The position numbers and the translations under genes are program-made. The notes beneath the pieces were generated by a model that saw only the letters and a program-made list of their open reading frames with translations, was not told where the DNA came from and did no database searches. Positions 2,622 through 8,218 of a stretch of 12,675 bases of DNA are shown in pieces. The DNA comes from Candidatus Iainarchaeum sp. Its GTDB lineage: Archaea; Iainarchaeota; Iainarchaeia; Iainarchaeales; CSSED10-239. Numbering within the stretch: position 1 is the stretch's first letter; every line of letters begins with the position of its first letter. The DNA lies in NCBI GenBank assembly GCA_003559395.1, contig PWLL01000097.1:1-12675 (forward strand). The letters run 5' to 3'.

Positions 2622-3941
2622 ATGTACAAAAAAATATTTCCAATAATTGTTGTTTTTTGCTTATTTATGATTGTTTCTAATATTTATTGCTTATCTATAT
2701 TAGATGCACAAAATATTGCAAGAGAATATAATTTAGAAAACGAGTTTATAGACTCTAGAGTTTTTCAGATAAATTGTGAGGACCAACATTTTTCTGTTGT
2801 AAGTGTAGTTAACGCTAGAGTAGAACTGATATTTTTTGTGCCAATTGATCGAGAAAAGAACATCTACACAGAAGATGATAAGACATTAGAAAATATTTTT
2901 AAAACAACATCTTTTTTAAGAGAAATAACTAAACAAACACAAGAAAATTATTTGAATGTTACTTTAATTGATTCTATGGATCAATTGATTACTATTCTAA
3001 ACTCTAAAAAAGCACAACTTAACGGAGTTGTTACTTCAGATTATTCTGAAAATATAACCTTAACAACTAAAGAAACTAGAGAACATCTAGAACAACTGGT
3101 TGATTTGTTACGTTCTTTAAGAGAGGGGTCAGATAACGCCTTAAAGAGTCAACAAAACTTCGTAAACGAACCAACTTGTCACAAAACTAGTGGTGTTGTG
3201 ATTGATTTAAGAGATGCGTTTGTGGGTTATAATGAATTGACATTATATGGTCTTAATTATCAAAATTCAATAAATAAGATAACAGAAGCAATTGTTGCAG
3301 AAAAAGAAATTAACGAAACAACTAAAATGATTATTTCTGGATATGTTGCTGCTCCACCAAACTTAAGTAAAGATATAAGTAATATTCAAGAAAGAATTTC
3401 TAGTACTCATTTTTTTTATAATGCAATTATTGCTGATTATTCAAAAATAGGAGAAAACAATCCAGCTATAGAAGCAAAAAATAATTTTTTATCAAGACAA
3501 AATTATGTAAAAGTAAATACTTTGTTGTATGAAAGAGATTCAGATCTAAAAAACACTTTAGATAACATTGTTCGATTAATTTTAGATGAAACCAGATATC
3601 CTTATTGGAAAGATAGACAAACACTAAGTAATCTTGAAGAAAATTACGAAGAAATAAATAATTTAATAGATAGAAAAAGACATTTAGAAGCAATACCTAA
3701 AATAAAACTATTAAAATCACAAGCCATAAAGATTGAAAATGAAGGTTTTGTTGATATTTCTGATGTTCAAGAAGGTTATGATTATTATATAGTGTTTGTT
3801 GTTATTATTTTGTTAGTTCTTTTATTTCTTCTTCTTAAGAAAAAGAAACCATCTAAAAAAAAGAAATCTAAAAATCAAAAACCTTTAAAAAAATCAAAAG
3901 ATGTTTTAGATTCTTTTAAAGAAAAAGATCCTTTTAAATAG
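2622..3941 (+). CDS. Surface protein of unknown function: N-terminal signal/anchor, ~370-aa mostly helical ectodomain, C-terminal TM anchor and poly-Lys tail
   Basis: ORF from ATG 2622 to TAG 3939-3941. N-terminal hydrophobic segment is IFPIIVVFCLFMIVSNIYC. The polar region is rich in heptad-like helical sequence. C-terminal TM segment is YYIVFVVIILLVLLFLLL, followed by KKKKPSKKKKSKNQKPLKKSK. No recognisable family. Its 3' end overlaps the convergent ATPase gene by 8 nt. Confidence 0.7.
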   Translation: MYKKIFPIIVVFCLFMIVSNIYCLSILDAQNIAREYNLENEFIDSRVFQINCEDQHFSVVSVVNARVELIFFVPIDREKNIYTEDDKTLENIFKTTSFLREITKQTQENYLNVTLIDSMDQLITILNSKKAQLNGVVTSDYSENITLTTKETREHLEQLVDLLRSLREGSDNALKSQQNFVNEPTCHKTSGVVIDLRDAFVGYNELTLYGLNYQNSINKITEAIVAEKEINETTKMIISGYVAAPPNLSKDISNIQERISSTHFFYNAIIADYSKIGENNPAIEAKNNFLSRQNYVKVNTLLYERDSDLKNTLDNIVRLILDETRYPYWKDRQTLSNLEENYEEINNLIDRKRHLEAIPKIKLLKSQAIKIENEGFVDISDVQEGYDYYIVFVVIILLVLLFLLLKKKKPSKKKKSKNQKPLKKSKDVLDSFKEKDPFK

Positions 3942-7291: not shown

Positions 7292-8218
7292 TCATCTAAG
7301 CATTCCTTGTACAAGATTTTCTACAATCAACTGATATTTTTCTCCATCTCTTATATTTAAATATTCAGGAGGAATTGCATAGTATGCGACTCTGTTTGAA
7401 TTACTTGTAACGATTGCAGGAAATATATCTCCATATCCTTTATTTTTTTCATCAATAAGATTTGATCCAAAGTCTATTTTTAATGGCGTTGGGTTTGGTG
7501 CTAATAATCTTACGACTGCATAATCTTCATAAACTAAAAGATTTGGTCTTAGGCCTCGTGTTAGTCTGTGATCTGTATCTGCAATCAGTTTTCCATTACT
7601 TATATCTTGACTACAGCTTTTAATTTCACAAAATCTTCCAAGATAATCAACGCCTAAAAAAGCATTAAATCTTATAAGTGTTTTTTCATCAACAACTCTT
7701 TCCCAACCACTTCTTTGACCAGTTTCAGGATGCACATAATATTCATCTTGATCTGTTTTTTCTAAACCTGCATCTCCAATCCATATTAATCTTCCTCCTT
7801 GGTTTACGTAGGTTATAAAGGTTTGAAGGTTTGTTGTTGAGATTTTTCTTGCACTTGTTACAATTATTAAACTTATGTTGGTTAGTTGATCTGAGCTTAG
7901 ATAGTTTATGTTGGCTTGTTGAGCTCTTACGTCGCTTATAGTTCTGTCATTTAAGAGACTTAATAAATGATCTCCATCTCCTAGTCCACTATTTTCTGCA
8001 GGGTCCGTAAGTATAAGAATACTTGGTTGGTTTCTTCCTGTAATTATTGTTTGTGTGCCCCAGTAGATGTCACACATAAAAGGAGCAGAACTACATCTCA
8101 TGTTTCCTGTCCATATTAAGGCATACATGGTTATAATCAAAAGTATTACTAAGAAGATTATTCTTCCAAGCCATGCTTTTGAAGATTTCTTTTTTGCACC
8201 AAGTTTTTCTAAATCCAT
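7292..8218 (-). CDS. N-terminally TM-anchored extracellular alpha/beta-domain protein (class I glutamine-amidotransferase-like / GH42M-ThuA-DUF4350-like pattern), first gene of the operon
   Basis: I place the start at ATG 8216-8218 (MDLEKLGAKKKSSKAWLGRIIFLVILLIITMYALIW). The track start at 8281 is a TTG, and its extension covers the TATA-like promoter region. Two Cys pairs (CSSAPFMC, CEIKSC) suggest an extracytoplasmic location. The strand-helix pattern is PSILILTD ... NISLIIVTSARKISTTNLQTFITYVNQGGRLIWIGDAG ... FLGVDYLG ... PAIVTSNSNRVAYYAIPPEYL. This recalls GATase1-like non-catalytic domains, and no Cys-His-Glu triad is evident. Fold call is by eye. Confidence 0.65.
   Translation of the reverse strand: MDLEKLGAKKKSSKAWLGRIIFLVILLIITMYALIWTGNMRCSSAPFMCDIYWGTQTIITGRNQPSILILTDPAENSGLGDGDHLLSLLNDRTISDVRAQQANINYLSSDQLTNISLIIVTSARKISTTNLQTFITYVNQGGRLIWIGDAGLEKTDQDEYYVHPETGQRSGWERVVDEKTLIRFNAFLGVDYLGRFCEIKSCSQDISNGKLIADTDHRLTRGLRPNLLVYEDYAVVRLLAPNPTPLKIDFGSNLIDEKNKGYGDIFPAIVTSNSNRVAYYAIPPEYLNIRDGEKYQLIVENLVQGMLR

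Follow-up and report, generated by a model that had tools for sequence, protein, structure and literature searches.

A probable archaeal type IV pilus system split over two loci in a family of Iainarchaeota

Identification of a probable split pilus system

The window analyzed here is the whole of contig C13 (12,675 bp) from an Iainarchaeota (DPANN) archaeon whose assembly (G000; 0.91 Mb in 115 contigs, about 28 % G+C) is 87 % complete. Its minus strand carries a block of five genes, numbered gene 1 (308 amino acids, aa), gene 2 (120 aa), gene 3 (164 aa), gene 4 (117 aa) and gene 5, a secretion ATPase. From sequence comparison we consider it likely that the pilus genes on C13 (half A) and a platform-pilin locus on contig C109 (half B) make up one archaeal type IV pilus (T4P) system, which in the host's own family (f1) is split over two loci. 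This reading draws on the parts list, the orthology of the halves to one contiguous operon, synteny, co-distribution and co-loss, and the integrity of the catalytic motifs. Pili are candidate organelles of attachment in DPANN archaea, which require cell-cell contact.

A preliminary description of the window had reported five tightly packed co-directional genes and had proposed a machine of new composition that lacks a platform protein. Its observation was confirmed and its interpretation was only partly supported. When the minus-strand open reading frames (ORFs) were re-called, the five genes were recovered with gaps of 6, 9, 6 and 25 nt, and the ATPase gene shared an 8-nt overlap with the convergent gene at 2622-3941. 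Searches for T2SSF (platform), Peptidase_A24 (prepilin peptidase) and archaellin gave no match in the window. The absence of a platform and a peptidase therefore stood for the window. It did not stand for the system, as a cognate platform pair and PilA-like pilins are encoded on C109 and Peptidase_A24 proteins (PF01478, above the cut-off) on contigs C67 and C32. The features of the block and of the large surface protein gene beyond it are as follows.

Gene 1: 7292..8218, minus strand; 308 aa, transmembrane (TM)-anchored ThuA/GIFT-like ectodomain protein
Gene 2: 6923..7285, minus strand; 120 aa, pilin-like, probable minor pilin, cleavage uncertain
Gene 3: 6419..6913, minus strand; 164 aa, pilin-like with a class III-type N-terminus, probable minor pilin
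Gene 4: 6059..6412, minus strand; 117 aa, acidic coiled-coil cytoplasmic protein
Gene 5: 3934..6033, minus strand; 699 aa, PilB/FlaI/GspE-family secretion ATPase, predicted pilus assembly motor
Giant surface lectin protein: 8542..12675, minus strand; more than 1,570 aa, with its 5' end on contig C6

ATPase locus in the window

The block is a type IV filament-related locus, as the preliminary description had held. Gene 5 matched the Pfam family T2SSE (PF00437, E-value 1.3e-31). The nearest solved structure was A. fulgidus GspE (2OAP, E-value 3.5e-94), which came ahead of FlaI. Against the NCBIfam FlaI model the protein scored 325 bits (E-value 7e-97) and did not reach the equivalog cut-off of 550 bits. 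All four catalytic motifs (Walker A, Asp box, Walker B and His box) are intact, and a Lys-rich extension of about 195 aa lies N-terminal of the core.

A total of 41 genomes of the order was searched, 21 of which belong to f1. Orthologues of gene 5 with 58-67 % identity over the full length were found in 20 of the 21 f1 genomes and in G037 and G032, which represent two further families; another is present in a Candidatus Iainarchaeum metagenome-assembled genome (MAG). The loci of the last three (G037 contig C8, G032 contig C25 and MAG contig JAZDDY010000120, locus L015) are called outgroup loci below. In the maximum-likelihood tree of the ATPases the f1 sequences formed one clade (support 100/100), which was joined by the G037, G032 and MAG sequences (91/98).

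The two sets of orthologues differ in what lies beside them. When platform genes were sought within 3 kb of the ATPase inside the fetched loci, none of the 20 f1 genes had one, compared with all three outgroup genes. The outgroup orthologues sit directly upstream of two TadC-like genes, the platform pair P1 and P2. Within f1 the five-gene block is syntenic in 20 genomes, and a check of gene order found it kept in every f1 genome examined except G002. This recurrence is far beyond chance, though the entire 12-kb neighbourhood is syntenic there.

Platform-pilin locus on contig C109

Genome-wide, T2SSF gene pairs were found on three contigs of the host assembly (C98, C68 and C109). The C98 pair adjoins an ATPase of 587 aa and the C68 pair adjoins an ATPase homologue of 841 aa, while no ATPase adjoins the C109 pair. 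The C98 protein is the only live ATPase that adjoins a platform among the three pairs. Behind the C109 pair lie three pilin genes, whose products share the N-terminus K[AS]VSP[LV]IATILL.

It is the C109 pair that corresponds to the platform genes of the outgroup loci. The outgroup pairs were reciprocal best matches of the C109 pair and its f1 orthologues (36-45 % identity, E-values 1e-43 to 1e-69), whereas all other platform paralogues shared at most 28 % identity with them. Across f1 the C109-type locus is syntenic and consists of two platform genes and three to four pilin genes (K[AS][VI]SP[LV]IATILL), never with an ATPase. In relatives with more complete assemblies, the distance from the ATPase to this locus is 224 kb in G004 (on a single contig), 219 kb in G007 and 196 kb in G011.

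In G037 contig C8 all of these parts are contiguous, in the order pilins, giant, gene 2, gene 3, gene 4, ATPase, P1, P2. We regard the contiguous operon as the ancestral arrangement, which f1 carries in two pieces. With about 200 kb between motor and platform, the system would be missed or misread by annotation pipelines and by classifiers that work locus by locus (such as MacSyFinder in ordered mode). The halves were re-paired here through orthology to intact sister loci, through phyletic patterns that agree, and through the two empty sites of a single genome.

Distribution and the paired empty sites of G002

Orthologues of the C109-type platform were found in 19 of the 21 f1 genomes, in G037 and in G032. 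None of the three families (ATPase, platform and giant lectin protein) was found in any other family among the 41 genomes searched.

G002, an f1 member from another genus, has no orthologue of the ATPase, of the C109-type platform or of the giant family, and both sites are empty. At the first (locus L085, G002:C14, 636-2998), sec61-beta and gene 1 are followed by the 439-aa convergent gene of the window, which abuts gene 1 directly with a gap of 2 nt, so that gene 1 stands without genes 2-5. At the second (locus L089, G002:C26, 3486-5075), a gene for a DRG-type GTPase lies directly against the C109_5398 homologue, with no P1, P2 or pilin genes between them. In the gene-1 tree G002 fell within f1, moderately supported (88/89 and 81/88), and joint loss is therefore the simplest reading of its empty sites. 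The paired sites indicate that genes 2-5 are a cassette apart from gene 1 that shares its fate with the platform-pilin cassette. This co-loss speaks for halves A and B forming one system.

Giant lectin protein

The giant ORF contains three modules of DUF2341 and LamG, with Laminin_G_3 (E-value 3e-49) and DUF2341 each matched in three stretches. It is separated from the five-gene block by the sec61-beta gene, and it runs past the end of the window at 12675. Its first 195 codons were located at C6:1-585 on the minus strand (start MQYIDWIMS); C6 and C13 are thus neighbours, and the assembly break between them probably lies within the repeated DUF2341/LamG modules.

Members of the giant family have a conserved N-domain and C-tail with a variable middle. 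When the window protein was compared directly with the outgroup giants by BLAST the matches were marginal, and profiles were therefore needed to link them. A profile of the f1 giant N-domain matched the window protein and C6:376-585. It also matched a 2,201-aa gene in G037 (E-value 9.5e-15) that lies immediately upstream of the homologue of gene 2 within the intact operon. In the profile search of the 41 genomes the N-domain family was present in 18 of the 21 f1 genomes and in G037; it was not found in the 18 other families or in G002, G005 and G006.

The preliminary description had named the giant protein as a plausible partner, and this suggestion gained support, as the family is co-distributed with the system and is found inside the intact G037 operon. 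We consider the giant protein the probable adhesin of the pilus system. A second lectin-like product is encoded about 3.3 kb beyond the C109 pilin genes (C109:1392-2549, minus strand). This 385-aa protein has a PilA-like pilin N-terminus, KKTISPLIASILLI, fused to Laminin_G_3 (E-value 3.5e-23). Taken together, the giant LamG protein and the pilin-LamG fusion make lectin-mediated adhesion a likely function of the system.

Pilin-like and coiled-coil proteins

Each of genes 1, 2 and 3 encodes one N-terminal hydrophobic helix. When the products of genes 1-4 were searched against Pfam and NCBIfam only sub-threshold noise was obtained, and genes 2 and 3 had no match to the Pfam family Arch_flagellin. 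The gene 2 family begins with M-[TI]-K-[STV]-x-E-[AVL]-x-[IL]-[AS], with the Glu present in all 12 full-length sequences of the alignment, one Cys in all aligned sequences and a second Cys in most. In gene 3 the N-terminus reads EKG|YTF, against KG|F[TV][YF]I in the family consensus, and leads into a hydrophobic helix; K8, G9 and F10 are nearly invariant. The AlphaFold2 model of gene 3 (predicted local distance difference test, pLDDT, 84.5) consists of an N-terminal helix, two more helices and a beta-sandwich.

Genes 2-4 go along with the ATPase in the outgroup loci; gene 2 homologues hold the same position in G037 and in MAG L015, and gene 3 homologues occur in the pilus loci of G037 and G032. 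Genes 2 and 3 are probable minor pilins, gene 3 with a putative class III cleavage site and gene 2 with uncertain cleavage.

Gene 4 is acidic (pI 4.85) and lacks any hydrophobic or TM segment as well as any Walker motif or P-loop. The gene-4 product is accordingly not FlaH, as the preliminary description had also concluded. Conservation is strong, for example in the stretches ITKFTYATM and KKTWDE. The gene lies directly upstream of the ATPase gene in all block-carrying f1 genomes, in G037, in G032 and in the Iainarchaeum MAG. A word-based homologue search returned only eight close protein clusters, without names or domains. Gene 4 is a conserved accessory of this ATPase clade that may adapt or regulate the motor from the cytoplasm, and it stands out as the uncharacterized conserved partner of the clade. 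A different coiled-coil family, arCOG07564, was noted in subclade 4F loci (Makarova et al., PMC4858521).

Proposed assembly of the split system

In the proposed scheme, half A would contribute the N-terminally anchored giant lectin protein, genes 2 and 3, gene 4 and the ATPase, and half B would contribute the pair of TadC-like platform proteins together with the major pilins, three PilA-like proteins. The A24 peptidases of C67 and C32 would trim the pilins. The ATPase hexamer would dock, possibly via the gene-4 coiled-coil protein, on the TadC pair that C109 supplies in trans, and would then drive polymerization of the PilA-like pilins into a fibre. As minor or priming pilins, the products of genes 2 and 3 would expose the lectin adhesin so that it can attach to a host or to a surface. 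For the split system we infer physical interaction of the parts, formation of a filament, and adhesion.

Several points weigh against this reading. The N-terminus of gene 2 is off the usual [KR][GA] cleavage motif. When the gene 3 model was compared with the PDB using Foldseek, no significant match and no solved pilin was found, so that its fold is pilin-like in a generic sense (N-terminal helix and beta-sandwich). Two of the three C109 pilins matched Pfam Pilin_N below the threshold (19-21 bits against a cut-off of 25.2), and the third had no Pilin_N match. The G002 assembly is only 84 % complete, which was counted against the co-loss, though both empty sites lie within contigs. The host genome holds other unpaired parts (the ATPase on C46 and the C68 pair with its dead ATPase), and for this reason pairing by orthology is no proof of present-day pairing. 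Finally, a 2026 survey of archaeal type IV filaments (T4F; PMC13705601) states that the ATPase and the platform gene of DPANN genomes are usually no more than five genes apart, which makes the separation in f1 atypical.

Other ATPase and platform loci in these genomes

The C68 ATPase homologue (C68:2668-5193, minus strand, 841 aa) lies upstream of its own two TadC-like genes and has orthologues in L060 (G004) and L067 (G037). All four catalytic motifs (Walker A, Asp box, Walker B, His box) are missing from the C68-type ATPases.

A second orphan ATPase of 769 aa, with a Cys-rich N-terminus and a very long branch, is encoded at C46:2518-4827 on the plus strand. ATPases of this type (also in L063, G004 at about 710 kb) had no platform gene nearby in any genome examined. 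In addition, relatives have a complete Epd/Tad-like locus with an ATPase, two platform genes and several KGQ-type short pilins, for instance in G004 (L059, G004:745000-755000). Its 373-aa membrane protein is a putative prepilin peptidase by appearance. A locus of this type was not found in the 87 %-complete host assembly.

Alternative explanations

The unlinked ATPase and its coiled-coil partner could instead serve as a shared motor for several platforms, of the C109 and C68 types. We rate this as rather unlikely, although three platform pairs (C98, C109 and C68) stand against one live platform-adjacent ATPase, the one on C98, and ATPase/TadC modules and pilin sets have been argued to be exchangeable (Makarova et al., PMC4858521). 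The dead C68-type ATPases also form the sister clade of the window ATPase clade (100/97) with their catalytic motifs gone. If the motor were shared, the dead C68 ATPase might be a docking scaffold only, with a division of labour between live and dead ATPases; to this, too, we give a low probability. However, G037 has a dead-ATPase locus (C56) while its live orthologue is still linked to its own platform. As both loci are kept there together with the linkage, unlinking is not needed for any motor sharing. Moreover, the co-loss in G002 concerns the C109-type platform, and no obvious C68-type pair was seen among the T2SSF matches of G002, which were not looked into further.

Far less probable is a platform-independent, ATPase-driven surface system of new composition, made of the five genes with the lectin protein as cargo. 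The tight gene packing, the lack of T2SSF in the window and an arrangement kept in 20 genomes would agree with it. However, the ATPases of sister lineages adjoin platform genes whose orthologues persist in the host genome, the platform half was lost along with the ATPase half in G002, and gene 1 occurs throughout the order with no relation to pilus loci. The preliminary description had favoured a reduced or new kind of module; what was found is a match to an already known cluster type, the DPANN/euryarchaeal-type T4P with two TadC-like genes.

It is similarly improbable that the ATPase half is a nonfunctional remnant that has drifted since the locus broke up: some scattered subsystem-4D components in DPANN have been suggested as remnants (PMC13705601), but all genes are intact here, the ATPase keeps 58-67 % identity over four genera together with its motifs and N-terminal extension, genes 2-4 retain conserved Cys and Glu positions, and G002, where the system is dispensable, shows clean deletion and not decay.

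Gene 1, sec61-beta and the convergent neighbours

The remaining features of the window are the following.

sec61-beta: 8376..8540, plus strand; 54 aa, housekeeping, divergent partner of gene 1, outside the pilus system
Convergent neighbour: 2622..3941, plus strand; 439 aa, signal or anchor at the N-terminus, TM anchor at the C-terminus
Polytopic membrane protein: 1457..2590, plus strand; 377 aa, not a platform

In the case of gene 1, membership in a five-gene pilus unit had been assumed, and this did not hold. As a pilus component the gene was rejected on its distribution and gene context. It is single-copy in 40 of the 41 genomes of the order, and it is divergently paired with sec61-beta in the five other families in which a sec61-beta ORF was recovered; outside f1 it is unlinked to pilus genes. 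In most of those families gene 1 is followed by a weaker paralogue (about 280 aa) and not by pilus genes (loci L078-L084). In a distant relative (L073), AglB and two glycosyltransferase genes precede it. The pilus fragment probably landed downstream of gene 1, so that gene 1 is probably co-transcribed with the fragment. Gene 1 would head the transcription unit on C13 but is not an ancestral pilus component.

The AlphaFold2 model of gene 1 (pLDDT 87.2) contains a class I glutamine-amidotransferase-like domain besides its TM helix. Foldseek matched it to ThuA-like proteins, the IFT52 N-domain (GIFT) and the GH42 trimerization domain with E-values of 1e-6 to 1e-7. Four Cys are invariant in the gene 1 alignment, and extracytoplasmic disulfides are therefore likely. 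The adjoining 54-aa ORF was identified as sec61-beta by its match to NCBIfam PRK01253 (E-value 1.4e-11). The order-wide pair of sec61-beta and the ThuA/GIFT-like gene (window 7292-8540) suggests that the uncharacterized gene-1 protein, which is near-universal in the order, has a role in secretion or N-glycosylation.

We also analyzed the two convergent membrane proteins as candidates for a hidden, diverged platform. Both were rejected, as hhalign against the T2SSF profile gave probabilities of 3.3 % for the 377-aa protein and below 1 % for the 439-aa protein. The former had been singled out in the preliminary description (there at 1460-2590) as the neighbour to be checked for T2SSF/FlaJ homology, and the check refuted such homology. 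The 377-aa protein had no Pfam or NCBIfam match. Both proteins have order-wide single-copy homologues, which in other families lie at separate sites away from pilus genes and ATPases. They are conserved, uncharacterized envelope proteins without a Pfam family. The system was thereby trimmed to its real parts, with gene 1 and the two convergent membrane proteins out and the giant lectin protein in.

Comparison with known systems

The nearest arrangement is that of the intact outgroup operons of Iainarchaeota, in which the ATPase, the coiled-coil protein, genes 2 and 3, the giant protein and the TadC pair are orthologous and have the same internal order. The 'dark matter' pilus islands with TadB/TadC (PMC6393860) are related to these operons. 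In f1, in contrast, the P1-P2-pilin part is found at a second locus, and the sec61-beta/gene-1 pair intervenes between the giant gene and gene 2. T4F genes are rarely held in one locus in DPANN genomes (PMC13705601). f1 is nevertheless an exception to the rule that ATPase and platform stay within five genes.

Among described systems, the closest by features, and not by placement in a tree, is euryarchaeal clade 2 (PMC4858521), or system 2 (PMC13705601). Clade 2 is exemplified by the PilB3/PilC3 locus of H. volcanii, with its PilA pilins, and by the GspE loci of A. fulgidus (PMC4858521). Shared features are the N-extended ATPase (about 195 aa) with A. fulgidus GspE as the nearest solved relative, the PilA-like N-terminus of the major pilins (Pfam score sub-threshold), a large adhesin-like protein in the locus, and pilin-like proteins without the canonical class III signal peptide (SPIII) motif. 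For parts encoded in trans there is a precedent in the PilB3 locus, which has no pilin genes, and ATPase/TadC modules that work with such pilins are documented (PMC4858521). The f1 system differs in that the ATPase is about 200 kb from the platform and that a small coiled-coil gene precedes the ATPase gene. Its platform consists of two genes, compared with one in system 2 (PMC13705601) and two in many clade 2 loci (PMC4858521).

With the Epd pilus, or system 1, of Methanococcus maripaludis, the f1 system shares two TadC-like platform genes, extra pilins at a separate locus and, as far as can be judged from its parts, adhesion. It differs from the short KGQ-type pilins and the EppA-type peptidase of that system, which in these genomes belong to a separate locus type (G004, 745-755 kb), and in the long N-terminal extension of its ATPase, which is listed as a feature of system 2 (PMC13705601).

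The series of two small N-anchored proteins, a small soluble protein and an ATPase is like FlaG-FlaF-FlaH-FlaI of the archaellum, but the likeness in order is superficial. The archaellum reading was rejected, as the FlaI score was 325 against 550 bits, gene 4 has no P-loop and no archaellin was found above the cut-off. The archaellin search (PF01917) was genome-wide; FlaH was not searched genome-wide.

In bacterial FimU-PilVWX-PilY1 operons, the genes for minor pilins cluster with that for a large adhesin that is not a pilin, and the major pilin is encoded elsewhere. The clustering of probable minor pilins and adhesin away from the major pilins in f1 may be seen as analogous, though there is no sequence relation or detectable structural relation, and the system here is an archaeal class III one. 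The general picture of how type IV pili work stays unchanged. The f1 machine is of a known kind; its genes are split in an arrangement specific to the lineage, and it has a few uncharacterized accessories.

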